DNA of 64,000 nt from Planctomycetota bacterium (GTDB taxonomy: Bacteria; Planctomycetota; MHYJ01; WSZJ01), in the NCBI GenBank assembly GCA_038060895.1, contig JBBTCT010000007.1, positions 68,023 through 132,022 on the forward strand, written 5' to 3'. The position numbers and the translations under genes are program-made. Shown piece by piece: positions 18,831-41,367 of the stretch. Under the pieces are notes generated by a model, which was not told the origin of the DNA, searched no databases, and saw only the letters and a list, made by a program, of their open reading frames with translations. Positions within the stretch are counted from its first letter, which is position 1; every line of letters starts with the position of its first letter.

Positions 18831-19301
18831 CTACTTGTGGTCGTGATCGTCATGGTCGTGATCATGCTCCTCCTTCGGCAGGTCAATGTTGTACTTCTTC
18901 CCGTCGATCGTCACCGCGATCCTCCCGTCGAGGGCGTGGGCCTTCAGCGCTTCGTCCGTCGCCTCGAACCGGGACGCAAGCCCCTCCTTGTCCGGCTCGA
19001 CGGCATTCGTGACCAGTTGCCTGGCCCCATCCTTCGTGGTCAGGTTGAACTTCGGCGCATCCTTGATCGCGACGCCCTTCTCGGCCTTCGCGTCGAGAAC
19101 GTAGATCGTCGCTTTGCCTTCTTTCTCGTCGCGCACAAGTTCGAGATGCGCGACTTCCTCCCCGACCTCGAGAAGCACGCCGCCGTGGGGCGCCTTGTGC
19201 TCCTCCTCCTTCTTCTCCTCCTTCTTGTCGTCACCCGCTCGAATTCCCGAAGCGAAGCAGGCGAAGACGACGACGGCCATTCCCAGGCGAGAACTAAGCA
19301 T
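18831..19301 (-). CDS. secreted His-rich metal-binding protein
   Basis: Signal peptide, HKAPHGG..HLEL motif, C-terminal HDHDHDDHDHK; last gene of the RND operon. Confidence 0.8.
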   Translation of the reverse strand: MLSSRLGMAVVVFACFASGIRAGDDKKEEKKEEEHKAPHGGVLLEVGEEVAHLELVRDEKEGKATIYVLDAKAEKGVAIKDAPKFNLTTKDGARQLVTNAVEPDKEGLASRFEATDEALKAHALDGRIAVTIDGKKYNIDLPKEEHDHDHDDHDHK

Positions 19302-24186: not shown

Positions 24187-25620
24187 TCACGCCTCCCTCG
24201 TCGCGCCGGGTGCGTCGTCCAACCGCCCCGACTCGTTGTTTTTATTTTCCTTCGCGGGCTCCGCGGGCCTGTCCGCCGGGTCCTCCCCGGGAAGTTCGTA
24301 AAGAGGCCGGCCAACCGCTTCCTCCAGGTCGGTCCACGACTCGCGTACCGCCTGCTCCGCTTCCAGCGACTCCAGCGCCGCCTCGCGATAGGACCGCTCG
24401 GCCACCAGCGCCTGCACCGCGTCGATTGCTCCCGCCTCCAGTCCCTTCTTCGCAAGATCGAGCTGGCTCCGCGCGAGCGTGAGGACCTTCCCTTTCCGCA
24501 GTTCCCAGCTCCCCATCAGGATCTCCAGGCGCGCCCGCGCCAACTCGACACGGGCCAGAGCCTCCCCGCACGCCGCTTCATACTTCGTGCGCAGCTCCTC
24601 CCGCCTCTCGAGCGCGAGCGCCACCCCCTGCTGATTCCGGTCGAAAATCGGTATGTCAATTCCCAGCGTCAGCCCGACAACGTACTTGGCTTCCCCGACC
24701 TCGCTGTCGCCCGAAAGCCCGAAGCGCAGGTCGGGATATTGCTTCGAGATCTCCAGCCGAAGCTGGGTCTCGGCTTCGTCGTAGCGGGATCGAAGCCTGG
24801 CCAGCGTGGGATGATTGGCGACCAGAAACGCCGCAAGGTCGTCCGTGGCAGGGAGCGGCGAGACCGAATCCGGAAGCGCACCTTCGGCGATGCCGCCAAG
24901 CACGACGCCGGAGACGCCGGTCAGCCGCGCGAGGTCGCCGGTCGCTTCCGCCTGCGCAAGGCGGGCGTCGAATCCGGCTCCTTCCGCCCTCGCGGCCTCC
25001 AGCTCGAGCTGGGCGACGTCAAGCGCCGTCCCAAGCCCCGCGTCCACCAGGCGCTTTCCAAGTTCGGCCCCGTCGCGCGCCAGCTTTCCCGCTTCCTCAG
25101 CCACGACCAGCCTCCGAACCGCCAGGGCCTGCCGGATGAAGGCGCGGCGCAGGGCGAGGTACGCTTCGCGGTGCCGCACCGCCAGCTCCACGCGCGCGAC
25201 CTCCGCCGCAAGCCGGTTCACGTCGTCCTGCCGTGACAGGCGCGCGCTCAATGGAATGGCGAAGCTGAGCGAGCCGTACGGCTGCACGTGGCGGGTCAGG
25301 ACCTCGGGGCCGAAACCGAATGCCGGCCCGATTTCAATGCCGGGGTTGGAGAGCGGCGTATCGACACCGGCGAGGGCCAGCGCCGTGAGGTACTCCGCCC
25401 GGGCCTCGGCCAGAGCCGGGCCGTGCTCCCGCAGAAGAAGCGCCGCCCGCGCGAACGTCAGGGTTCCCCGCGGATCCGGTCCGGGCGACTCTTCAAGCAG
25501 GCGCGCCCGCCGGACGTGTTCCATCACGTCGTCCACGCGGAGCGGCTTTTCCTCGTACGAAGTGCATCCCCAGAGCGACAGGCTGAACAGGGCAATGGGG
25601 ATGCCACAGGAACGGAGCAT
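24187..25620 (-). CDS. TolC/CzcC-family outer membrane factor
   Basis: Lipobox LWGC; KQYPDL, IDIPIFDRNQQG; position upstream of the MFP. Confidence 0.9.
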   Translation of the reverse strand: MLRSCGIPIALFSLSLWGCTSYEEKPLRVDDVMEHVRRARLLEESPGPDPRGTLTFARAALLLREHGPALAEARAEYLTALALAGVDTPLSNPGIEIGPAFGFGPEVLTRHVQPYGSLSFAIPLSARLSRQDDVNRLAAEVARVELAVRHREAYLALRRAFIRQALAVRRLVVAEEAGKLARDGAELGKRLVDAGLGTALDVAQLELEAARAEGAGFDARLAQAEATGDLARLTGVSGVVLGGIAEGALPDSVSPLPATDDLAAFLVANHPTLARLRSRYDEAETQLRLEISKQYPDLRFGLSGDSEVGEAKYVVGLTLGIDIPIFDRNQQGVALALERREELRTKYEAACGEALARVELARARLEILMGSWELRKGKVLTLARSQLDLAKKGLEAGAIDAVQALVAERSYREAALESLEAEQAVRESWTDLEEAVGRPLYELPGEDPADRPAEPAKENKNNESGRLDDAPGATREA

Positions 25621-25723
25621 GTCTCACCTCGCGAGCGGAATCGTTGGGGCCGTGGACGCTCCGCGCGCAATGCGGGCGGAGTCCGGGCGCCGCGATCAGG
25701 TCAGCGACAGGCGCGAGGCGCGG

Positions 25724-26113
25724 CTAGCAGCGCAGGACGTGGTGGCGGGAACCCGCCGCGACTACTCGAACGGCCGTTTCGACGGACCGGGCCGCTTCGG
25801 CACACGAAGCGCCGATGGAGAGAAGTTGCGCAGGAGGCGAAGCGACCGCCGCGTGGGCCTTGTGAATCCCGCTGGAAACCGGCGAGAGGATGTCGGTGCA
25901 GTCGCCGCAATCGGGCCCGGCAGCGAGGTGCGGCCCGCCGTCCTCGTCGCATCCGCCTTCTTCGTCGCAACAGGCGTCGTCGGAATCGCAGCACGCAAGC
26001 GCCTCGACCTCGTAGGCGAGGTGGCCGTTGTCCCCGATGCAGAGGATGGTGCCGCTCGTCGCAACGAGGGCGATCGTGTGGAAGAGACAGAGGAGGAGGG
26101 CGACCGTGCGCAT
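25724..26113 (-). CDS. small exported Cys-rich leader protein (LRC type, copy A)
   Basis: MRTVALLLCLFH..SG..LCIGDNGH..YE..CC..CC..PDCGDC.D..VLRC; aligns from the first Met with 31162..31563; alternative start at 26131. Confidence 0.75.
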   Translation of the reverse strand: MRTVALLLCLFHTIALVATSGTILCIGDNGHLAYEVEALACCDSDDACCDEEGGCDEDGGPHLAAGPDCGDCTDILSPVSSGIHKAHAAVASPPAQLLSIGASCAEAARSVETAVRVVAAGSRHHVLRC

Positions 26114-26127
26114 GAGGGGGCACTTTA

Positions 26128-29100
26128 TCATGGGGCGGCCGTCTCGATGCGGGGTTTTCTCTCGAGGCCACGGCTCCGAAGAGCCACGAACAGGGTGGGA
26201 AGCACGAACAGCGTGAGCACCGTGGCCGTCGCGAGCCCGCCGATGACCACGGTCGCGAGCGGCCGCTGGACTTCCGCGCCGATCCCGGTCGAGATCGCCA
26301 TGGGCACGAAGCCGAGGCAGGCCACCAGGGAGGTCATGAGCACGGGACGCAGTCGCTGTTCCGCGGCGGAGAGCACGGCCTCGCGCACGGGAGTTCCCGA
26401 ATCGATGAACTGGCGGATCGTGGAGACCATGACCATGTCGGCCAGCACGGATACGCCGGAGAGCGCGATGAAGCCGACGCCGGCGCTTACCGAGAAGGGC
26501 ATCCCGCGCAGGTGGAGCGCCAGCACGCCGCCCGCGACCGCGAACGGGACTCCGGTGAACACGCGCAGCGAGTCCGGGATGTTTCCGTACGTCGCGTAAA
26601 CGAGAAACAGGATCAGGACGAGCGCGAGCGGCACGACCCACGCGAGCGTCTTCATCGCGCGCACCAGGTTCTCGTACTGCCCGCCGAATTCCACGCGGCA
26701 GTTCGCGGCCCTGAGCTCGGCTCCGAGCTGCGCGTCGATCGCCGACCTCGCTTCCGAGACAAACCCGCCCAGGTCGCGCCCTTCGACGTTCACGCTCACC
26801 GTTGCCAGGCGCTTCCCCCATTCCCGCGTCACGACCATCGGCCCCGTCTCGCGCGTGACCCTGGCGACCTGCGAGAGGGTGAGCCGGCCGCCGCCGGGCG
26901 TGGGGAGCAGCAGCGATCTCAGCCCCTCCTCCCCCGTCGTAAGCCTCTCGGGGAGGCGGATGGCGAGCGGGAAGCGCCGCGAGCCGGCGCGGATCTCTCC
27001 GGCGTCGAGCCCGCCGGCAGCCTCGACCCAGTCAAGCACGTCGGCGGCGCGCAGGCCGTGGCGCGAAAGCTGGGCAGGGTCGAGTTTCACCTGCAGGACC
27101 GGCTGGCCCACGAGGCGTTCGGCGGACGGATTTGACGCGCCCGGAATGCCGCGCAGGACCTGCTCGACCCGCGCCGACATCGTCTTCAGCGCCTCGTAGT
27201 CGTCCCCGATCACCTTCACGCCGACATCCGTCCGGACCCCGGCGATCATCTCGTTGAAGCGCATCTCTATCGGCTGCGTGAACGAGAAGTTCATGCCGGG
27301 AAGCGGCTTGAGCGCGCGGTCGATGGCGGCGCGAAGCTCTTCCTTGGTGCGCGCTTTCTTCCACTTTTCCCGCGGGTGCAGGATGACGAAGACGTCGCTG
27401 ACCTCGATTCCCATCGGATCGGTCGCGACCTCCGGCGTCCCCGTCCGGGTCCAGACGGTCGCGATCTCGTCGCGGAATTCGTCGAGGAGAAGCCGCTCGA
27501 TTTCGGTCGAGAAGCGGGCCGACTCTTCGATCGAGACGCCGGGGAACCGCACCGTGTTGATGACGATCGATCCCTCGTCGAGCTTGGGGACGAAGATCGC
27601 GCCCAGTTTTCGCGCGAGCGGGATCGTGCCTAAAACCACGATGAGGGCGCTTCCCAGCACGAGCACGCGATGATCGACCGCGAACCGCACCGCCGGACGG
27701 TAGAGGCGCTTGAGCCCTCGGATGATCCAGGGTTCGTGATGGCCGCCGCCGCCGCGGCGCAGGAGAAGGCTCGCGAGGACGGGCATGAGCGTCAGGGAAA
27801 GGACCATCGAGCCCATGAGCGCGAAGATCACGGTCAGCGCCATCGGCCGGAACATTTTCCCTTCGACCCCGGCGAGCGCGAGGATCGGAAGGTAGACGAT
27901 CATGATGATGAGTTCGCCGAACATGGTGGGCTTGCGGACTTCGCTTGCGGCCTCCGCGACGATCTCCGTCACGGGGCGGCCGGTCGTGTCTTCCTGGAGA
28001 TGGCGCACCGAGTTCTCGACCATGATCACGCTCGAATCGACGATGAGGCCGAAGTCGATCGCCCCGAGCGACATGAGCGTGCCGGCGATGCCGAGCGCCC
28101 ACATGGCGGGGAACGCGAAGAGGAGTGACAGCGGGATGGCGGCGGCGACGATGAGCGAGGCCCGGAAGTGCCCCAGGAAGAGGAAGAGGATGGCGATGAC
28201 GAGGAGAGCGCCTTCGACGAGATTGCGTCGGACGGTGTCGAGGACGTGGTCCACCAGTTCGGTGCGGTCGTAGACGACGCGAACGCGCGCGCCGTTCAAC
28301 TCCGGGGACTTTCGGATCTCTTCCATTTTTTTGCGCAGGCGCCCCGCGACCACGTGACTGTTTTCGCCCATGAGCATGAAACCGAGGCCTAGAACTGTTT
28401 CGCCGCGCCCGTCCGCCGTGACGACGCCGCGCCGCGGCACGGTCCCGATGAGGACGTCGGCCACGTCCTTCACGCGTACGGGGCGGCCGTCGTGAGAACG
28501 CAGCGTGATGCCGCCGATTTCTTCCGGAGTCGACGTGAGCCCGATCCCGTGGACGAGCAGGATTTCGCCCGATCCCGCGGAAGCGCCGCCGCCCACGTTG
28601 AGGTTCGAGCGTTCGAGCGCTTCACGAAGGTCCTGAAGCGTCGCGCCGTGCTTGATGAGGCGCGCCGGGTCGGCGACGACCTGGAACTGCTTTTCGAATC
28701 CGCCCCACGCGTTGACTTCCGCGACTCCCGGCACCGACAGGAGTTGGGGCTTGATGACCCAGTCGTGCGTCGTGCGGGCGTCGGTGACGTCCCCGTTCGG
28801 GGCCGTGACGATGTAATGGTAGATCTCGCCGAGCCCGGTTGCGACCGGGCCCATTTCGGGGGCGTCGATACCCGGGGGAAGTTCGATCGACTGCATCCGC
28901 TCGAGGATCTGCGAACGCGCGGACCAGACGCTGGTGCCGTCCTCGAACACCAGGGTCACTTGTGACAGCCCGTACTTCGACATCGAGCGCACCAACCTCA
29001 ACCCCGGCATGCCGCTCATCACGGCCTCGACGCGCGCGCTGATCTGCTGCTCGACCTCGACAGGCCCGAGCCCGGGCGCCACGGTATTCACCTGCACCAT

Positions 29101-29235
29101 GACGTCCGTCACGTCCGGAAACGCGTCCAGCGGCAGCCGCTGGAACGCGGCCGCCCCCAGGAGCGCCAGTGAAGCGCAAAGCACCACCACCAGCGCCCGG
29201 TGGCGAAGCGAGAAGTTGATGACGGCATTCAGCAT
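26128..29235 (-). CDS. czcA: CzcA-type heavy-metal efflux RND permease
   Basis: PLDAFPDVT, GPVATGLGEIY, TM4 SLGAIDFGLIVDSSVIMVEN, RLRPVLMT, GAEVQRPLATVVIGGL. Confidence 0.93.
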   Translation of the reverse strand: MLNAVINFSLRHRALVVVLCASLALLGAAAFQRLPLDAFPDVTDVMVQVNTVAPGLGPVEVEQQISARVEAVMSGMPGLRLVRSMSKYGLSQVTLVFEDGTSVWSARSQILERMQSIELPPGIDAPEMGPVATGLGEIYHYIVTAPNGDVTDARTTHDWVIKPQLLSVPGVAEVNAWGGFEKQFQVVADPARLIKHGATLQDLREALERSNLNVGGGASAGSGEILLVHGIGLTSTPEEIGGITLRSHDGRPVRVKDVADVLIGTVPRRGVVTADGRGETVLGLGFMLMGENSHVVAGRLRKKMEEIRKSPELNGARVRVVYDRTELVDHVLDTVRRNLVEGALLVIAILFLFLGHFRASLIVAAAIPLSLLFAFPAMWALGIAGTLMSLGAIDFGLIVDSSVIMVENSVRHLQEDTTGRPVTEIVAEAASEVRKPTMFGELIIMIVYLPILALAGVEGKMFRPMALTVIFALMGSMVLSLTLMPVLASLLLRRGGGGHHEPWIIRGLKRLYRPAVRFAVDHRVLVLGSALIVVLGTIPLARKLGAIFVPKLDEGSIVINTVRFPGVSIEESARFSTEIERLLLDEFRDEIATVWTRTGTPEVATDPMGIEVSDVFVILHPREKWKKARTKEELRAAIDRALKPLPGMNFSFTQPIEMRFNEMIAGVRTDVGVKVIGDDYEALKTMSARVEQVLRGIPGASNPSAERLVGQPVLQVKLDPAQLSRHGLRAADVLDWVEAAGGLDAGEIRAGSRRFPLAIRLPERLTTGEEGLRSLLLPTPGGGRLTLSQVARVTRETGPMVVTREWGKRLATVSVNVEGRDLGGFVSEARSAIDAQLGAELRAANCRVEFGGQYENLVRAMKTLAWVVPLALVLILFLVYATYGNIPDSLRVFTGVPFAVAGGVLALHLRGMPFSVSAGVGFIALSGVSVLADMVMVSTIRQFIDSGTPVREAVLSAAEQRLRPVLMTSLVACLGFVPMAISTGIGAEVQRPLATVVIGGLATATVLTLFVLPTLFVALRSRGLERKPRIETAAP

Positions 29236-29345: not shown

Positions 29346-30635
29346 TCAGCCCGCCCCCATCTGCCCCTTCATCGCCTCCGTCTTCAGCAGGAAACTCCCC
29401 GTAGTCGCCACTTTTTCCCCCGCGACCAATCCTCCTTTCACCTCGAACCCTCCCTCGAACTCCGCGCCCGTTTCGATCTTCCGCGCCTGGAACACCCGCG
29501 CGGTCGTCTCCACGAACACCAGCAGGCAGTCCCCGTCGTTCTGCACCGCCTCGCGCGGAACCAGCAGCTTCGCCTCCGCCGACTTCACCGTGATCTCCGC
29601 CCGCCCGAACATGTGAGCGCGCAGAAGCCCGTCGGCGTTCTTCACCTCCGCATACGCCTTCACCGTGCGCGTCTCGTCGTCCACCGATCCTCCGAGGGAC
29701 ACCACTTTTCCGACGAACTTCTTCCCGGGGAACGACTCGAGCAGGAAAACCGCCCGCTGCCCCGCGACCACACGCGTCAGGTCGCTCTCCGGCAGGTCGA
29801 TCACGACCCACATCCTCTCGACGGAAGCGATTTCAAAGAGCGGGCGCTCCGGGGAGGCGGCCTCTCCCACGACCGCCGACGCCGCGACCACCGTCCCGGC
29901 AAATGGCGCCGAGACCGTGAGCGAGGCCGAGACGTCCTTGCCCTTTTCCACCTCCGAAACCTGCTCCTCGGAAAGCCCGAGCCCGCGCAGCCGAAGGGCC
30001 GCGGCCTGCACCATCAGCCGGGCTTCCTCCAGCACCGTGCGCGCTTCCAGTTCGTCCTTCCCCGCGACCAGGCGCTTCTCGAACAGCTCCCTGGTCTTCG
30101 TGTACAGCTCCTGGCGCAGTTCGCGTGCCGCCACGGCCTGCAGGTGTGCGGCCTTGGCCTGCGACAGCTCGGCCGAGTCGACGATGGCGAGCGGCGTCCC
30201 GGCCTCGACCTGCTGCCCGAGCGCCGCGGACACCGAGCGCACGACGCCGCCCAGCCGCGGCCCGACTCGCGCCCAGGCCGACGGTACGAACTCCGTCTCG
30301 GCATTGCCGCGCGCGGTTTCCGCGATGGCACGGGACTCGACGGCGGCCGTGCGGACCCCTGCACGTTCGGCGGCGCCTGGGCCAAGCTCGATTTTCACGA
30401 GGGTGTTCGGACACTCCCCCTCTTTCGGCTCTCGCATGCGGGTCACCACCGTTCCGCCCCGCGCCAGCTTCGGGTTGCAGGATTCACACTTCGACAACTC
30501 GACCTGGTGCGGCTCGCACCAGTCCGTCCCATGCGCGGGAGGCCCCTCCCAGGGCAGCCGCCCGTGACCCGCGGTCCATGCGAACGCGGAAATCAGCGCA
30601 AGGAACACCACTCCGGTCAGGATCGACGATTTCAT
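29346..30635 (-). CDS. czcB: CzcB-type RND periplasmic adaptor with N-terminal Cys/His motif
   Basis: DWCEPHQVELSKCESCNP; SAPFAGTVV, VDDETRTVK, VPREAVQ, GEKVATTGSFLLK. Confidence 0.9.
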   Translation of the reverse strand: MKSSILTGVVFLALISAFAWTAGHGRLPWEGPPAHGTDWCEPHQVELSKCESCNPKLARGGTVVTRMREPKEGECPNTLVKIELGPGAAERAGVRTAAVESRAIAETARGNAETEFVPSAWARVGPRLGGVVRSVSAALGQQVEAGTPLAIVDSAELSQAKAAHLQAVAARELRQELYTKTRELFEKRLVAGKDELEARTVLEEARLMVQAAALRLRGLGLSEEQVSEVEKGKDVSASLTVSAPFAGTVVAASAVVGEAASPERPLFEIASVERMWVVIDLPESDLTRVVAGQRAVFLLESFPGKKFVGKVVSLGGSVDDETRTVKAYAEVKNADGLLRAHMFGRAEITVKSAEAKLLVPREAVQNDGDCLLVFVETTARVFQARKIETGAEFEGGFEVKGGLVAGEKVATTGSFLLKTEAMKGQMGAG

Positions 30636-30644
30636 GGCCCCCTC

Positions 30645-31085
30645 CTATTTCCCCTGGCAGTCGTCGCAGAGTTCGGATTCGCCGTTGTCACCCTTTTCCC
30701 AGCCGCAGTCGGTGCAGTACGCGTACGACACCCACTTGTCCCCGTCCTTGACCTCGTACTTCCAGACCCCGATGTACTGCGCCTTCGCAAAGGTCCAGCC
30801 GTGGATCCGGACTTCCTTTCCGCGAAGCTTCTCATTCGTGATCACGCCGTGTCCGTGCACGTTGTCGACAAGGGTCCACATCTTTCCCTCGGCGTCCTTG
30901 AGGCCCTGGGCGTGCTTGCTGTGAAGCGTGCACTGCGCGTCGGCGCCTTCCTTGTCCAGTTCGCAACCGACGCAGACGATGGTTCCGGCGGTCTGGGTGA
31001 GTTTCTTGAAGTCGGGCTTCTTTGCTTCGTCGCCCGCGAGGACGGCGAGCGGAACGGCGAGAAGGGCAATGCAGAGGGTCTTCAC
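30645..31085 (-). CDS. secreted Cys/His-rich hypothetical protein
   Basis: AAGGAG RBS, GTG start, signal peptide; CVGC, CTLHSKH, YCTDC, CDDC. Confidence 0.8.
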   Translation of the reverse strand: MKTLCIALLAVPLAVLAGDEAKKPDFKKLTQTAGTIVCVGCELDKEGADAQCTLHSKHAQGLKDAEGKMWTLVDNVHGHGVITNEKLRGKEVRIHGWTFAKAQYIGVWKYEVKDGDKWVSYAYCTDCGWEKGDNGESELCDDCQGK

Positions 31086-31161
31086 GGGAGTTCTCCTTGG
31101 AAGGATGTTGGAAGAGAGTTTTAGCGTAAAAGCTGTATTTACGTAGTGCCAGCGGCGGCGC

Positions 31162-31563
31162 TTAGCAGCGCAGCGGCAGAGGCACGGGCGGTCCGCACGT
31201 CAGGGGCCCGCCCGCCGCGAAGTTCGACCCCGCGGCGTTCCCGTTCACGACCTCGGCGACCCGGATCTCCTCGGGCGCCGCTCCGATCGGATGCAGATCC
31301 ACCGCCACTCCGCTCATCATGGGCGCAAGCCCGTCCACGCAGCCGCCACAGTCCGGCGCCGCCTTCAGGATGTCGCCCTGCTCCTCTTCAGCCTCGCACT
31401 GCTCGCAGCAGGGCTCCGCCTCAGCAACCGGCTCGCCGCAGCACTCGTCCCCCGTCCACTCGTACTCCGCGTGCCCGTCGTTCCCGACGCACAGGGCCAC
31501 GCCCGACGTCATGAGGACCGCGGTGAAGTGAAGGACGCAGGCGATGGTGGCGATGATCCTCAA
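31162..31563 (-). CDS. small exported Cys-rich leader protein (LRC type, copy B)
   Basis: TTG start; H..SG..LCVGNDGH..YE..CC..CC..PDCGGC.D..PLRC; paralog of 25724..26113. Confidence 0.75.
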   Translation of the reverse strand: MRIIATIACVLHFTAVLMTSGVALCVGNDGHAEYEWTGDECCGEPVAEAEPCCEQCEAEEEQGDILKAAPDCGGCVDGLAPMMSGVAVDLHPIGAAPEEIRVAEVVNGNAAGSNFAAGGPLTCGPPVPLPLRC

Positions 31564-31601
31564 GCCCGTTCATCCTAGCAGAAACCGAAAACGCCGGGCG
31601 G

Positions 31602-32363
31602 TCATTCCGGCACGGTTCCCATGAACCCGCTCACCGCGTCGTTGAACGGGCCCGGCGCTTCGACATTCGACAGATGCCCGGCGTCGGGGATCTCGACGTA
31701 CTTCGCCCCGGCGATCTTCTCCCCCATCGCACGCATCTCCGCCGGCGGCGAAATTTCGTCAAGCGCGCCGCAGACGACCAGCGCCGGCACGTCGATCGTC
31801 GCCAGGAGCGAAGTCGAGTCGGCGCGCGATCCGAGCCCCAGAAGCGCCGCAGCCAGTCCCTCGGGTTTGTTCGCGGCGATGATGTCGCGCACGAACACTC
31901 GCGCGGCTTCCGGGGCCTTCGCCGACAGCAGCTTCGGCATCATCTTCTCCCCCGCCACCGCCGACCCGCCCTTCACGACCTCCGCCGCAAACGTCGCGCG
32001 ACCCGCCCGCTGCTCTTCCGTGTCCGCCGCCGCGCGCGTGTCCGCCAGCACCAGTGCGCTCACCCGCGCACGATGACGCTTCCACAGTTCAAACGCCACG
32101 TACCCGCCCATCGACAGCCCGCAGAACGCCGCACGCCGGATCCCCAGCGCGTCCAGCGTCTCCACCACGTCGTCCGCCATCTCCGCCATCGAAGCCGAAG
32201 CGGCCACCGATGAGCCGCCAAATCCGCGCAGGCTCACCGCCACCAGGAGATTCCGCTCCCGCAGCCGCGCGAAATTCGGATACCACATCGAAGACGAAAG
32301 CGGAAATCCGTGAAGCAGCACCAGCACGGGTCCTTCACCGGCGGCCTTGAACAGCAGCTTCAT
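31602..32363 (-). CDS. alpha/beta hydrolase (3-oxoadipate enol-lactonase-like)
   Basis: LLHGFP, GLSMGGY nucleophile elbow, DEISP, GHLSNVE. Confidence 0.92.
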   Translation of the reverse strand: MKLLFKAAGEGPVLVLLHGFPLSSSMWYPNFARLRERNLLVAVSLRGFGGSSVAASASMAEMADDVVETLDALGIRRAAFCGLSMGGYVAFELWKRHRARVSALVLADTRAAADTEEQRAGRATFAAEVVKGGSAVAGEKMMPKLLSAKAPEAARVFVRDIIAANKPEGLAAALLGLGSRADSTSLLATIDVPALVVCGALDEISPPAEMRAMGEKIAGAKYVEIPDAGHLSNVEAPGPFNDAVSGFMGTVPE

Positions 32364-32402: not shown

Positions 32403-32557
32403 ATCGCCGGGCGTGGCGGGTCGGGAAGCGCCGCGTCGGGCGGCGCGCAAAGTTCACGCGACCCTCGATCGACGTGCTGCGGCCGCGCTTGCGCCGCAAC
32501 CCCGCCAAATCACGGCGCCGCCCGACGCGCGCTTCCCGACCCGCCACGCCCGGCGAT
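32403..32557. repeat. long inverted repeat (MITE/REP-like)
   Basis: Arms 32403-32446 and 32515-32557; 43 bp reverse-complement match with one extra base. Confidence 0.8.
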
Positions 32558-32640
32558 AGCGGAGGAGGGAATTGAACCCTCATGAGTGTGACCTCGACGG
32601 ATTTTGAATCCGTTGCGTCTGCCAGTTCCGCCACTCCGCC
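32557..32640 (-). tRNA. tRNA-Leu (CAA)
   Basis: GGCGGAG acceptor stem, D-arm TGGCGGAACTGGCAGACGC, ACGGA-TTCAAAA-TCCGT anticodon arm, long variable arm, GAGGGTTCAATTCCCTC; no encoded CCA. Confidence 0.96.
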
Positions 32641-32740
32641 TCGCGGACGGGAGCGGAAGGGGCGTCCTGAACCCCGGGGCGGCGCACCTGGCGCGCCGCA
32701 CCCGGGATTCAGGACGCCCCTTCCGCTCCCGTCCGCGAGG
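32639..32740. repeat. long hairpin in the tRNA 5' leader
   Basis: Arms 32639-32678 and 32701-32740; 40 bp with one mismatch, plus additional inner pairing. Confidence 0.85.
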
Positions 32741-32759
32741 AGAATAGCGCGAAAGAGAC

Positions 32760-32768
32760 ATTGTACCA
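32760..32768 (-). promoter_or_regulatory. extended -10 promoter for tRNA-Leu
   Basis: TGG-TACAAT on the minus strand upstream of the leader hairpin. Confidence 0.55.
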
Positions 32769-36934: not shown

Positions 36935-38014
36935 TCACCGGACCGGCTTCGCCTTCTCCCACGCACCCTTCGCCTTCTCTTCCTCGCTCTTCGCCGCGGC
37001 AGCCAGCTGCTCCAGCTCCTGCAGCCCCGCCAACGCCTCCGCTTCCGCCGCCGCCGCCGCCTTCGCGTCCTTCTCCGCCTTCGCTTCCCCGGCCTCGGCA
37101 GCGCTGATGGCCGCTCCGAGCGACGCCGCGAGCTTCTCCAGGTCCGCCACTCGCCGTTCGGCCTGCGACAGGTCGAACTCCGCCATCGCGAACGCCTTCT
37201 TCGCCCGGCGCAGGTCCAGGTCCGCCTGCCCCGCCACGTTCGGCTCCTCGCGCTGCGCCCGCAGCCGCTCCTGGTCGTAGAACCACTGCGCCCGCTCGAC
37301 CGCCCGCTCCGCGCTGTCCCGCGAACGGTCCGCCGCCTTCACGTCCGCTTCCGCACCCGGGATCGCCGCTTCCGTGTCCGCATGTTCGCGCGTCCGCGCG
37401 ACGATCGCCCGCGCAGCCGCATCCCGCGACGCTTCCGCCCGCTCCCTGGCATGGCGCTCGCGCAAAGCAGCCGCGCGCCCCGCCGCAAGGCGCTCGTCCA
37501 TCTTCTTGCGGATCTGCTGCGAAAGCCGCCAGGAATACTCCAGCGGATGCGTCCAGCGGCCCTCGAAGCGCACCCACCCGCGCCCCTGGTAGTACGTGTC
37601 CGGGTCCTGCCACTCCCCAGCAACCAGGTGCCAATCGCGCGAGGCCAGCTCGTCCGAGGCGGCCTTGAAGTCCGGGTCGAGCGTGGCCGCCGCGATGAAA
37701 TGCCGGATCGCGTCCTTCTCGAGTTTCACCGACTCCAGCCACTCCGCGAGCTCGAACTGCGACTTCGCGTCCTTCTCGTCGAGATCCTTCATCCGCTCCG
37801 CGTATTCCTGCTCCGGCGTGAGCTTCTCTTCGATCGACGCAATCTTGTCTTTCTCCAGCGTGATCGCCCCCATGCGGAGCTTCACCTTCACGACGTTCCC
37901 GTCGTCCGAAATCACGTCGCCCTCGATGACGCGGCCATCCTTCAGCGTGATCAGGTCGGCCCGCGCCCTTCCAGCGGCGAGGACAAGTGCGGCCAGAACG
38001 AGTGCCCGTTTCAT
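36935..38014 (-). CDS. secreted hypothetical protein with coiled-coil C-terminus
   Basis: MKRALV signal peptide, ADLITLKDGRVIEG, RGWVRFEGRW, Ala/Glu-rich tail. Confidence 0.8.
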   Translation of the reverse strand: MKRALVLAALVLAAGRARADLITLKDGRVIEGDVISDDGNVVKVKLRMGAITLEKDKIASIEEKLTPEQEYAERMKDLDEKDAKSQFELAEWLESVKLEKDAIRHFIAAATLDPDFKAASDELASRDWHLVAGEWQDPDTYYQGRGWVRFEGRWTHPLEYSWRLSQQIRKKMDERLAAGRAAALRERHARERAEASRDAAARAIVARTREHADTEAAIPGAEADVKAADRSRDSAERAVERAQWFYDQERLRAQREEPNVAGQADLDLRRAKKAFAMAEFDLSQAERRVADLEKLAASLGAAISAAEAGEAKAEKDAKAAAAAEAEALAGLQELEQLAAAAKSEEEKAKGAWEKAKPVR

Positions 38015-38112
38015 GGCGAATGTCCCGAAAAGTGGACGCGACAGCGGTCCCCCGCAGTATAAAGCAATCGCCGTGCCCCGAATCCGGCTTACGCCTCTTC
38101 CAGGAGCCCGCC

Positions 38113-41100
38113 ATGCGCCCGATCGCAACGCTCGCCCTCCTCACTCTCGCTCTTCAAGCGACGGCCCAGACCCAGGGCCTGTTCCGCTTCCCTTCCACTC
38201 ACGGCGATCGCGTCGTCTTCTCGTGCGAGGGGGATCTCTGGGAAGCGCCCCTTGCCGGGGGCGAAGCGCGGAGGCTGACGAGCGCGCCGGGGAAGGAGCA
38301 GCACGCGACGTACTCCGCGGACGGAAAGTGGATCGCATTCACGGCGGACTACGACGGGAGCTCCGACGTCTACGTGATGCCGGCGCGCGGCGGCGAGCCT
38401 CGCCGGCTGACGTGGAGCCCGGACGCGGAGCGCGTCATAGGGTGGGATCACGAAGGTCGCGTCCTGTTCCGCTCGCGCGGCGAGCTGCCGTTCGGGATGT
38501 GGACCGCGTGGCGGGTCGCCCCCGCCGGCGGGGATCCCGTGAAAATCCCGCTTGGCGAGGCCATCCAGGTTTCGTTCGCGGCGGACGGGCGGTGCGCGTT
38601 CGTGATGTGGATGTGGGAGAATCAGCACTGGAAGCGCTACTCCGGCGGGCTCGCTTCGGACATCTGGGTCGGCGACCTCGAAAATAAAACATACACGCGT
38701 CTGACCGACTGGAAGGGGAACGACGCCTACCCAATGTGGCAGGGTGACCGCATCTACTACCTGACGGACCGCGACGGCGTGCAGAACATCTGGTCCTCGA
38801 AGCCGGACGGCGCCGACCGGAAGCCGCACACGAAACATGCAGGCTACGACGTCCGGTTTCCGACCCTTGGCGACGGGAAAATCGCCTACCAGCTCGGCGG
38901 AGACATCCGTGTCTTCGACTGCGCCTCCGGCGAAGACCGCGCCGTGGACGTCAGGCTTCCTTCCGACCGCCTCCAGGCGCGCGCCCGGCTCGCGGAGCCT
39001 GCCTCGAACATCGGGCGCATCGGCCTCTCGCCCGACGGAACGCGGCTCGTCGCCGCGGCGCGCGGCGAGATCTTCTCGATCCCCTTCAAGGAGGGACGAC
39101 TCGTCAACCTCACCGGCACGCCGGGCATCCGCGAGCGCGCCGCCACCTGGTCGCCGGACGGCAAGCGCGTCGCGTGCCTGTCCGACGCGACGGGGGAATA
39201 CGAAATCTGGCTGCTGGACCCGACACAGGAAAAGCCCGCGGCGCAGCTCACGAAAAACGGAAAGGGCTGGAAGCTGCCGCCCGTGTGGTCGCCGGACTCC
39301 ACGCAGCTGGCCTGGGCGGACATGGAAGGGCGGCTCTGGCGCGTGGACGTTGCAACGGGCGCGTCGAAACAGATCGACGCGTGCGGAACCTGGGAGATCT
39401 CTGCTTACTCCTGGTCCCCCGATTCGCGCTTCCTCGCCTACGACTTCCCTTCCGATACGTGGAATTCGGTGATCAAGATTCACGACACGAAGGAGGGCCG
39501 CACGGAAGCCGTGACCGACGCGCGCTGGAACTCGACCAGTCCTTCCTGGGACCCGGAGGGAAAGTTCCTCGCGTTCCTTTCCGCGCGCACCATCAATCCG
39601 AAATCCGGGGACTACACCTTTGAGTACAACTTCGGGATCGACGAAACCGTGAAGCCGTACCTGCTGCGCCTCACGGCCGGCGCGCGCGCGCCGTTCGAGC
39701 CCAGGGAACGCGGCCTGGTGACCGAAACGAAGGAGGAGAATGACGACGACGAAGACGACGGCAAGAAGAAGAAAAAGAAGAAGAGCGACGACAAACCCGA
39801 GCCGCCCGCGGCCGTCGTCATGGAGTGGGACGGACTCCTGGAGCGCTGCGTCGTAGCCCCGGTCCCCGCGGGAATCTGCCGCGACCTCGTTTTCGCGAAG
39901 GGCCGGCTCTTCTGGATCGCGTCGCGCAACAAGGGATGGGCCTCGGGCGACGAAGAAGAAGCCACTTCGCTGGTCGTTCTCGAACTCGAGTCAAAGAAGA
40001 AAATCGTCCTCGCGAAGGGCGCGACGGAATTTTCGCTCTCCGGCAACGGCGAGCGGGCCGTCGTCCGGGTCGCCGACGCTTTCACGCGCATCGACCGCGG
40101 CGCCGATTCGCTGCCGGCCGGTCCCGACACGACGTTCCGCACGGCGGGCTGGACGGTGCCGATTGACCCGGCGCAGGAATGGCGCCAGATCTGGAACGAA
40201 GTCTGGCGGCTGGAAAGGGATTTCTTCTACGACCCGCAGCATCACCGGGTGGACTGGGAAGCCGCGCGGAAGAAGTACGAACCGCTGCTCCCGCGCGTGT
40301 CGAGTCGCGAGGAACTGAACGACCTCGTCGGCGAAATGCTCGCGGAACTTTCAAATTCCCACGCCTACATTTCAGGCGGGGACGATCGCTCGGTCAAGCC
40401 GGTGCGCGTCGGCTCACTGGGCGCGAAGTTCGCGCCGGACGCGGCGGCAGGTCGCTACCGCGTGACCCGGATTTTCCGTGGCGACGTCTTCGACCCGAAG
40501 CGCACTTCGCCGCTCCTCGCAGCGGGGGTGAAAGAAGGCGAGTACCTGTTTGCCATCGACGGCACACCGGTGAAGGCGGGCGAAGGCTGGCAGCGCCTGC
40601 TCGTCGACAAACCCGAGAAGCCCGTGCTGCTGCGCTTCGGAACGAAGCCCGACGGATCGGACGCGCGGGACGTCTATGTCGTCGCGCTCGGCGGCGACGG
40701 TGCGCTCGTGTACGCGGACTGGGTCGAAGGAAACCGGCGCTACGTCGAAGAGAAGTCCGGCGGCAAGGTCGGCTACCTCCACGTTCCGGACATGGGAGGC
40801 CGCGGGCTCGTCGAGTTCGGGCGGCAGTTCCCGTGGCAGTCGCAGAAGGACGCGCTGGTCGTGGATGTCCGGTGGAATTCCGGCGGCAACACCCACGGCA
40901 TGATCCTCGAGCGTCTCCGCCGTTCCACGACGCACTTTGACAAACCGCGGCACTTCCGTCCCGAGCCGGTCTACTGGAGATCGGTGCGCGGCCACCTCGT
41001 CGCGCTCATGAACCACAACACTGCTTCCGACGGGGAGAATTTCATCCACGCCTGGCAGCACGACAACCTCGGCCCCGTGATCGGGACGCGCTCGTGGGGA

Positions 41101-41367
41101 GGCCTGGTCGGATACCGCGGCGACAAGGACCTCGTGGACGGTGGATTCAACGCGCAGCCCGAGTTCGCGCACTTCGGGTGGGACGGGAAATGGGTCGTGG
41201 AAGGCGACGGCGCGATCCCGGGAATTGACGTGACCAATGATCCCGGGGCACTGGCGGCGGGGCGCGACCCGCAACTCGACCGGGGAATCGAGGAAGCCCT
41301 GTCCCGGATCGCAAAGGAACCCAGGACGCCGCCGATCGCCCCTGAACCGCCCGACCGGTCGAAATAA
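38113..41367 (+). CDS. tricorn-type S41 protease
   Basis: CAGGAG RBS, signal peptide, PD40 beta-propeller repeats, FFYDP, SHAY, GYLHVPDM, DVRWNSGG, TASDGE, IGTRSWGG. Confidence 0.95.
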   Translation: MRPIATLALLTLALQATAQTQGLFRFPSTHGDRVVFSCEGDLWEAPLAGGEARRLTSAPGKEQHATYSADGKWIAFTADYDGSSDVYVMPARGGEPRRLTWSPDAERVIGWDHEGRVLFRSRGELPFGMWTAWRVAPAGGDPVKIPLGEAIQVSFAADGRCAFVMWMWENQHWKRYSGGLASDIWVGDLENKTYTRLTDWKGNDAYPMWQGDRIYYLTDRDGVQNIWSSKPDGADRKPHTKHAGYDVRFPTLGDGKIAYQLGGDIRVFDCASGEDRAVDVRLPSDRLQARARLAEPASNIGRIGLSPDGTRLVAAARGEIFSIPFKEGRLVNLTGTPGIRERAATWSPDGKRVACLSDATGEYEIWLLDPTQEKPAAQLTKNGKGWKLPPVWSPDSTQLAWADMEGRLWRVDVATGASKQIDACGTWEISAYSWSPDSRFLAYDFPSDTWNSVIKIHDTKEGRTEAVTDARWNSTSPSWDPEGKFLAFLSARTINPKSGDYTFEYNFGIDETVKPYLLRLTAGARAPFEPRERGLVTETKEENDDDEDDGKKKKKKKSDDKPEPPAAVVMEWDGLLERCVVAPVPAGICRDLVFAKGRLFWIASRNKGWASGDEEEATSLVVLELESKKKIVLAKGATEFSLSGNGERAVVRVADAFTRIDRGADSLPAGPDTTFRTAGWTVPIDPAQEWRQIWNEVWRLERDFFYDPQHHRVDWEAARKKYEPLLPRVSSREELNDLVGEMLAELSNSHAYISGGDDRSVKPVRVGSLGAKFAPDAAAGRYRVTRIFRGDVFDPKRTSPLLAAGVKEGEYLFAIDGTPVKAGEGWQRLLVDKPEKPVLLRFGTKPDGSDARDVYVVALGGDGALVYADWVEGNRRYVEEKSGGKVGYLHVPDMGGRGLVEFGRQFPWQSQKDALVVDVRWNSGGNTHGMILERLRRSTTHFDKPRHFRPEPVYWRSVRGHLVALMNHNTASDGENFIHAWQHDNLGPVIGTRSWGGLVGYRGDKDLVDGGFNAQPEFAHFGWDGKWVVEGDGAIPGIDVTNDPGALAAGRDPQLDRGIEEALSRIAKEPRTPPIAPEPPDRSK

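Follow-up and report, generated by a model that had tools for sequence, protein, structure and literature searches.

Leader B, a 133-aa open reading frame at 31162-31563 (minus strand) of the window (the whole 64,000-nucleotide stretch of DNA that was analysed), is probably a cis-acting upstream ORF whose nascent chain serves as a metal sensor. It belongs to an unnamed planctomycete family of leaders, and this family is real and not a product of chance. The ORF begins with a TTG codon, has a coding-like codon bias (GC3 0.90), encodes 11 cysteines and ends in PLPLRC-TAA. Its layout runs from a hydrophobic helix through LC-x-G-x-DGH-x2-YE, two CC pairs and a CxxC motif to a 58-aa spacer and a terminal LRC touching the stop. 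The helix, residues 2-19 (31507-31560, minus strand), is a putative signal peptide or anchor, with hydropathy reaching 1.99 per 19 residues. The CxxC motif (C72-G-G-C75; 31339-31350, minus strand) is the anchor of the fixed spacing, and the terminal L-R-C codons with the TAA stop (31162-31173, minus strand), kept through synonymous changes, form a putative pause site. An LRC-stop closes only 1 of the 3210 crudely called genes of the genome. AlphaFold2, run on a 9-row alignment, returns a mean pLDDT of 46, with values of 79-90 in the helix block and below 50 elsewhere; the chain past residue 22 is thus predicted to be unfolded, as far as low pLDDT from so few rows can indicate. Reading Cys25 as a lipoprotein cysteine was rejected by eye, as no lipobox precedes it. 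Neither leader B nor its paralog, leader A, matches a Pfam or NCBIfam family; the one weak Pfam match of leader A, RCC1_2, lies under the cut-off and was rejected. An Rfam scan found only a tRNA nearby. Two RNA runs from one sample yielded sparse contigs at a depth of 2-3, none of them over the B gene or gap, and are uninformative either way.

Leader A (25724-26113, minus strand; 129 aa, ending VLRC-TAG) offers the closest comparison. The first-pass annotation had listed H12, TSG..LC.G..GH..YE, two CC pairs, PDCG.C.D and LRC-stop as common to the two leaders, and all of these are present. A and B share 35% identity over residues 1-86 (BLASTP E 1e-16) and are the sole strong matches within the 5.4-Mb, 87% complete genome. 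Their CC pairs lie at residues 41/48 in A and 41/52 in B. The spacer, measured from the second Cys of CxxC as far as the C-terminus, is of nearly equal length, as had been claimed: 57 aa in A and 58 aa in B. Its complete divergence, however, holds for the core only, which aligns no better than shuffles (p 0.60), whereas the 10 residues after CxxC are conserved; for these residues and for the N-terminal part, none of 2000 shuffles is as good. Likewise, length and LRC are conserved, but they and the metal ligands are not the only conserved features, as G, Y, E, P and D positions and an L-x-P-x-x-G motif are also kept. H12 is found in 9/11 loci of the clade of leader B vs 7/80 outside it, and its position inside the hydrophobic helix together with this clade specificity leaves the ligand label unsupported. 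As both occur at one locus, A and B make a natural pair, alike in the putative sensor but apparently unlike in output.

The named relatives of leader B are Planctomycetota, and nine close proteins all end in LRC. When 1.84 billion representatives were searched with a profile, 61 matched, the distant ones with a longer tail, and a 57-row profile found matches in 93/401 genomes of the phylum. Loci were fetched for most of the listed matches, yielding 118 distinct leaders, or 116 after two cut by contig ends were dropped. The phylum-wide tail reads L-R-[TS]-V-[VI]-L-[RL]-[CIVL]-stop, with LRC as a local form. Anchored at the stop, its successive positions across the 116 loci hold L (53%), R (53%), T or S (45% and 27%), V or T (49% and 19%), V or I (51% and 16%), L (84%), R or L (47% and 29%) and finally C, I, V or L (45%, 20%, 16% and 11%). 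The shorter pattern [LIFM]-x-[CILV]-stop is present in 104/116 loci vs 51/3210 crudely called genes of the genome. Since the 57-row profile itself contains the tail, which could make such counts circular, the profile was rebuilt from N-terminal halves only; it matched 86/401 genomes. Among 40 held-out loci, 35 carry the strict tail, 4 near forms and 1 is a likely false match (L232, left in the count), while an OEP- or adaptor-like neighbour accompanies 32 of the 40.

No Pfam or NCBIfam family covers these proteins. NCBIfam, including HYC_CC_PP NF047658, yielded no family for 52 leaders at E 0.01 and for 6 more at E 0.05, and 50 homologs had no Pfam match at E 0.01. By language-model features, the nearest named clusters in the ESM Atlas are DUF8199, DUF6769 and one with 23% DUF2946 (scores 0.94-0.95), but its three best matches have no Pfam family, and the named clusters, which have no HMM match, are leads only. 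Pattern-based locus scans returned 1 and 3 loci, nothing new among them.

The distance between the cysteines and the stop is constrained more tightly than the rest of the chain. In 24 clade sequences the spacer from the last Cys to the stop measures 55-59 residues (SD 0.9), vs 40-63 residues (SD 6.5) for the linker from the first to the last Cys; 23 of these sequences end in LRC and 1 in PRC. LRC is retained despite synonymous codon changes in two loci, L012 and L013. Outside the clade the spacer spans 58-77 aa (SD 3.5, 149 sequences; held-out values above 79 come from envelopes ending early and are excluded). Such a fixed Cys-to-stop length with free sequence, joined to a stop-anchored tail, lends good support to the positional constraint on the nascent chain proposed by the first-pass annotation. 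The profile-based check of C-terminal conservation that it suggested points the same way: the ends of homologs and the lengths within the clade are not variable, so that the observation which would have spoken against the proposal did not appear, yet LRC proves to be the form of one clade and the ruler is longer elsewhere. According to the account in PMC7513700, about 50 residues in extended form bridge the peptidyl-transferase centre and the periplasmic SecYEG exit, so that a spacer of 57 would leave the last Cys barely outside once the ribosome arrives at the stop. In the sensor reading, the hydrophobic N-terminus would bring the ribosome to the Sec translocon, and the 58-residue spacer of leader B would act as a ruler, holding the last codons at the peptidyl-transferase centre while the Cys cluster is just periplasmic. 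The metal or disulfide state of the cluster would then set the dwell time at L-R-C-stop, probably by slowing termination. A fixed spacing that is likewise needed is described for the copper leader CruR (PMC9426467).

Several features of the tail are awkward for a sensor of this kind. Its last residue varies widely and its stops include those read by RF1 and those read by RF2, which is unusual for a tightly fitted arrest motif, and the spacer has a spread of about 15 residues among sequences outside the clade. A family-wide stop-codon bias was rejected, the 116 loci having TAG in 58, TGA in 42 and TAA in 16, like the genome. The 11 clade loci (L001-L007 and L010-L013) use TAG in 8, TAA in 3 and TGA in none, while the wider family often uses TGA; this skew could reflect a release-factor preference or mere kinship. 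A hydrophobic tail also fits the signal of a tail-specific protease (PMC7481392). The leader might then be a released periplasmic metal-binding protein—a buffer, chaperone or trans sensor—with the tail as a degron or PDZ ligand setting its turnover; this is the main rival to the sensor reading, but one that we consider improbable. Prc/Tsp is described as binding nonpolar C-termini via its PDZ domain (PMC7481392), degradation of this type is raised in the CruR paper (PMC9426467), and a free C-terminus would account for both the anchoring of the motif at the stop and the tolerance at its last position. It leaves unexplained, however, a spacer fixed within 2 residues despite its free sequence, and also the three features set out below: RNA pairing confined to the ribosome footprint, the first place behind a promoter with a long gap, and alternation with ArsR genes. 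The tail may nevertheless serve as a degron in a second role besides stalling.

The genomic context of the leaders is that of metal efflux. From leader B, the gene order is B, an exported 146-aa protein, an HlyD_D23 adaptor, an RND transporter, leader A, an outer-membrane factor, a second adaptor and a second RND gene. The adaptor (29346-30635, minus strand) is a CusB/CzcB-like RND periplasmic adaptor, and the transporter (26128-29235, minus strand) belongs to the CusA/CzcA heavy-metal RND family, scoring 1101 bits against TIGR00914 (cut-off 701); the second RND gene remains under that cut-off with 664 bits. Leader A is followed by the outer membrane efflux protein (24187-25620, minus strand) and then by the second adaptor and RND gene. 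The first gene after B (30645-31085, minus strand), the first that the leader would regulate, encodes the exported Cys/His protein, for which no Pfam or NCBIfam family was found; it has a CxxC, a C-x-x-H-x-x-x-H and a C-terminal Cys cluster, and 88 homologs. These homologs adjoin metal RND genes in most loci examined, and in several relatives of the class a TGA cuts the C-terminal part. Across the family, 115 downstream ORFs were picked and 114 scanned, one with an N-run being left out. The next gene is OEP in 83, HlyD_D23 in 11, a rotamase in 1 and without a family in 19, and by hand count 9 of these 19 are of the same type as the exported neighbour of B and 2 are second leaders in tandem. 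The gap between leader and next gene has a median of 94 nt. The tandem leaders, in L027 (G232:C4, about 65080-65950) and L039 (G275:C234, about 1460-2310), are separated by 72 and 68 nt, and their second members have no SD by the scoring used.

With the neighbour gene of B as bait, 14 operons outside the genus were extended, 4-6 kb being fetched for each. Within that range, an ArsR/SmtB gene heads 8 of them and a Cys-rich small leader 6, while none has both. All eight ArsR/SmtB heads exceed the Pfam HTH_5 cut-off (8/8), and NF033788 matched both of those tested (2/2). As ArsR heads and leader heads alternate, the leader occupies the position of a metal-responsive repressor. The six Cys-rich heads end in NFRI, VLRF, PLRI, TLLI, PLRC and PLRC, and judged from their sequences, leaders with unlike N-terminal halves have the tail type in common. 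L130/L170, L150, L163 and L168 are Cys-rich with an N-terminal half unlike A/B, end in TLLI, ALLI, NFRI and PLRI, and probably represent additional families that share this kind of tail. In L150, L163 and L166 the stop region or the post-stop arm folds onto the next SD.

A candidate promoter immediately precedes the leader. An extended -10-like element, TG-n-TAGGAT (31572-31580, minus strand), matches the consensus and ends 8 nt before the TTG start, and leader A has a comparable element at 26122-26130 (minus strand). A TAnnnT box ends 5-10 nt before an in-frame start in 44/91 leaders, including 11/11 clade loci with A and B among them, and 35 of the 44 boxed leaders also have a TTG -35 or an extended TG. 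The same placement of a -10 occurs at 6/337 and 0/115 control starts; the count covers leaders with a locatable Cys motif, and the contrast is somewhat inflated since leaders had several candidate starts vs one per control. A strict promoter and terminator scan of the minus strand reported neither. The consensus match suggests nearly leaderless transcripts for the leaders, with A and B each at the head of a separate unit; in the proposed mechanism, leader B would accordingly be translated from a nearly leaderless mRNA started at its own promoter.

In the wider family, predicted folding of the RNA links the stop codon to the next gene. We modelled a ribosome at the stop by blocking positions -18..+10, which makes the downstream RBS cheaper to open, the median saving being 2.7 kcal/mol in 91 loci vs 0.0 at 200 control junctions (91 of the 116 loci remained once those with doubtful starts or with gaps outside 45-170 nt had been dropped). 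Across the 80 non-clade loci, the SD region pairs at 0.2-0.4 with positions -15..+11 relative to the stop, and pairing falls to background at +12. This boundary (+11/+12) coincides with the edge of a ribosome that holds the stop codon in its A site. The pairing is specific to the locus: native partners reach -17.3 vs -12.7 kcal/mol for swapped ones in the 80 loci, and 24/80 loci vs 3/120 controls fall in the top 5% of the swap test. Native beats swapped in 42/51 loci after thinning of kin and in 26/28 held-out loci. These comparisons have limits: a single genome with crude gene calls supplied the folding controls, a script chose the downstream starts, and related loci are not independent. Outside the B clade, a ribosome dwelling at the stop is thus predicted to unmask the next SD, in the manner of a CutF-like switch. 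A stall would then mean ON, and as the same efflux pumps stand elsewhere under ArsR, metal should lengthen the stall.

The pairing could also arise from plain translational coupling, in which any terminating ribosome melts the helix, RNA pairing shapes the tail and metal control is transcriptional. We hold this to be improbable. RNA selection does act on the tail: C is favoured at the third position in its final 8 codons (0.65 vs 0.54 expected), and native codons outpair synonymous recodings in 50/80 loci. In the B clade, however, LRC persists although the pairing is absent and codons have changed synonymously, and coupling leaves the Cys cluster and the fixed spacer unexplained. There is no space for a leader behind the -10 box, and no regulator gene was seen adjoining the operon of leader B.

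The unmasking predicted for the wider family has little or no counterpart in A and B themselves, which speaks against a cis-acting sensor. In leader A, a post-stop arm (25712-25718) and the SD region in front of the outer-membrane-factor gene (25625-25633) are paired (25625-25718 overall, minus strand), and the three A-type loci have a post-stop pairing of about 0.5, but they fail the partner-swap test, and the computed stall effect for leader A, -2.7 kcal/mol, has the wrong sign. Leader A points weakly to Shine-Dalgarno unmasking. The eight B-type loci give native pairing of -7.8 vs -11.1 for swapped partners, and SD access in leader B and its seven B-type relatives is unaffected by the ribosome. 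The first-pass annotation had found no strong anti-SD in the gap, and folding and the swap test agree that a stop-proximal anti-SD is absent in B. An inverted switch, in which the stall frees an anti-SD, had no support from constrained folding.

The gap after leader B comprises 76 nt, with C27 and G12. The quoted C/U-rich, G-poor stretch corresponds to 31099-31118 (minus strand), a G-free single-stranded stretch of C, U and A that is a candidate rut or RNase site. The low G content stands, but C is not enriched (p 0.38) and a strong Shine-Dalgarno, AAGGAG (31093-31098, minus strand), precedes the next gene; its predicted access is the same with and without a ribosome on the stop codon of the leader. 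A AAACTCTCTTC-like core is found in most B-type gaps. In L013 (1854-1998) and L007 (1827-1973) the CTCTTC core is closed in a hairpin with a compensatory change, while in B it is open. A further predicted hairpin, whose loop contains the stop codon, spans 31146-31185 (minus strand; -23.7 kcal/mol, z -1.98, 8/200 shuffles as good); it is seen in the clade, without compensatory changes. Consensus folding of 8 B-type gaps reaches -3.8 kcal/mol. Compared with 259 controls, B-type gaps (n=10) have less G (0.17 vs 0.29) and more of their C unpaired, and other leaders do not share this. As the strict scan reported no terminator on the minus strand, we rejected an intrinsic one in the gap.

Control through Rho, the output suggested by the first-pass annotation, would combine the sensing described above with a stalled ribosome that shields rut; on its leaving, Rho would terminate in or just after the 76-nt gap. 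We regard this output as unlikely for leader B, if still to be reckoned with. The composition of the B-type gaps and the lack of an anti-SD agree with it, as do a bubble of C over G at about 31200-31000 next to a G-rich leader body and precedents described for TnaC, SpeFL (PMC12360218) and CruR. The genome also encodes two rho paralogs (G000:C9:40381-41613 and C29:21055-22143), both over the TIGR00767 cut-off. Against it, the skew is due to loss of G; the bubble ranks only at the 86th-92nd percentile of control junctions, is near the median in L007 and L013, and peaks from +37 onward, beyond the footprint and into signal-peptide codons. No synonymous C bias, which would mark a rut, was found in the spacer codons, and protection should come from a ribosome recruited to the strong SD that lies 63 nt beyond the stop. 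Moreover, 8/10 of the gaps come from one genus, and the wider family relies on SD masking. Since the B clade combines an open, G-poor gap with no SD pairing, Rho is possible for B, but it is not the rule of the family.

Alternatively, coupling may have decayed in the genus of B, with the gene persisting for another reason. No B-type gap contains a predicted switch and the tail is reduced to LRC, but decay is hard to reconcile with the clade of B having the tightest spacer and tail conservation of the family, or with gap lengths of 73-80 nt and a common core kept in 8/8 B-type gaps, and we consider it very improbable. For the output of the B clade, our own estimate assigns somewhat over a third of the weight to Rho attenuation, about a quarter to kinetic or re-initiation effects on translation, about a fifth to mRNA cleavage or stability and roughly a seventh to lost coupling.

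The sensor reading thus draws on the spacer, on a tail recovered in held-out loci when the model had none, on locus-specific SD pairing at -15..+11, on ArsR alternation and OEP or adaptor neighbours, and on a chain predicted to be unfolded. A bolder scenario, which we advance tentatively and at somewhat less than even confidence, holds that a periplasmic metal signal relayed through the translocon blocks termination at a proline-free hydrophobic tail, L-x-[CILV]-stop, a kind of arrest that the literature searches did not turn up, that leaders with unlike N-terminal halves ending in VLRC, PLRC, TLLI, NFRI and PLRI replace ArsR on heavy-metal pumps, and that the B clade has been rewired from SD unmasking to transcription termination or decay.

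Among known systems, CutF, upstream of cutO in Rhodobacter capsulatus, is described as stalling on PPP under EF-P control (PMC9973294; bioRxiv 10.1101/2025.02.05.636593), and copper is proposed to block disulfide folding, whose pull would otherwise release the chain (bioRxiv 10.1101/2025.02.05.636593). As described there, CutF resembles the leaders in being a small exported upstream ORF with a Cys motif whose neighbours are often OEP, CusB or CusA; at the level of the family, its C-terminal stall, which opens a stem over the next SD, has a predicted counterpart. Leader B agrees with the size, neighbour and Cys/His rules given for CutF-like proteins in PMC9973294, being 133 aa long (<150), with a same-strand neighbour at 76 nt (<1000 nt) and 11 Cys; as to their Sec signal, B has the hydrophobic helix 2-19. 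It has PP at residues 125-126, which leader A lacks, and would pass the filter for PP in the last 15 residues; some members may therefore be in the list of PMC9973294. The conserved element here differs in being a proline-free tail touching the stop, and there is no profile match. PP is not conserved (6/11 clade and 25/105 other loci), and the SD-masking stem is absent from B and its clade and is found computationally in the wider family.

CruR (Bp2923; DUF2946/PF11162) of Bordetella pertussis is described as controlling import, copper switching expression off via Rho with rut inside the ORF (PMC9426467), and arrest at its RAPP motif is shown in PMC12992588. From these accounts it shares with our leaders a constant distance between CxxC and a motif at the C-terminus, the first place in the operon, a long gap and a poorly structured product. 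It differs in combining RAPP with a 45-residue spacing, vs L-x-hydrophobic-stop with 57 (clade) or about 67 here, and in having rut within the ORF, the B ORF being G-rich. PF11162 matched neither B nor A at E 0.1. No RAPP/RGPP C-terminal motif was found in the 11 clade loci, rejecting a hidden copy there, or within the last 10 residues of the 116 loci. R[AG]PP does occur 12-28 residues before the end in 14/172 wider members (2.6 expected), a sequence excess hinting at a link to RAPP leaders.

TnaC, SpeFL (PMC12360218) and PepNL (PMC11890864) are described as short cytoplasmic peptides that arrest at stop codons. Conserved residues abut the stop in them as in our leaders, and a stop-held ribosome controls the next gene, putatively so here. 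These peptides, however, are described as sensing a tunnel ligand or read-through, without an export signal or an external metal site, and leader B, at 133 aa with a hydrophobic N-terminus, is set apart by description. CzcI of Cupriavidus metallidurans, a small gene before a czcCBA-type RND operon, is listed as CutF-like without a C-terminal proline motif and suggested to be a metal-sensing regulator (PMC9973294); its likeness to our leaders is one of description. Literature searches, most subscription journals lying outside their scope, found no paper describing an L-x-hydrophobic-stop tail or this family.

The metal-sensing leaders CruR and CutF stall on proline motifs, by the accounts in PMC9426467 and PMC9973294, and the survey of CutF-like proteins in the latter was filtered for PP, so that a proline-free class falls largely outside it. 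By their sequence features, the leaders are probably a metal-sensing, stop-pausing family, a proline-free version of the known copper switch. If true, a stop tail controlled across the membrane would join the termination arrest of TnaC, SpeFL and PepNL to the transmembrane sensing of CutF; it would explain the regulation of many Planctomycetota metal pumps that have no transcription factor nearby, and may bear on proline-less leaders such as CzcI.

The surroundings of the operon offer a few further observations. A 1126-aa ORF at 37987-41367 (plus strand) appears tricorn/S41 protease-like, by eye only, with no link to the leaders shown. At 18831-19301 (minus strand), directly after the second RND gene and probably within the operon, lies an exported 156-aa His/Glu-rich protein with an HGG motif. 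A tRNA gene (32557-32640, minus strand), with GC-rich inverted repeats visible on both sides in the region 32420-32760, lies upstream of an alpha/beta hydrolase gene (31602-32363, minus strand), which in turn is directly upstream of leader B. The same hydrolase precedes leader B in genome G002 and an A-type leader in genome G006, a placement that suggests that the two leader units have been rearranged.
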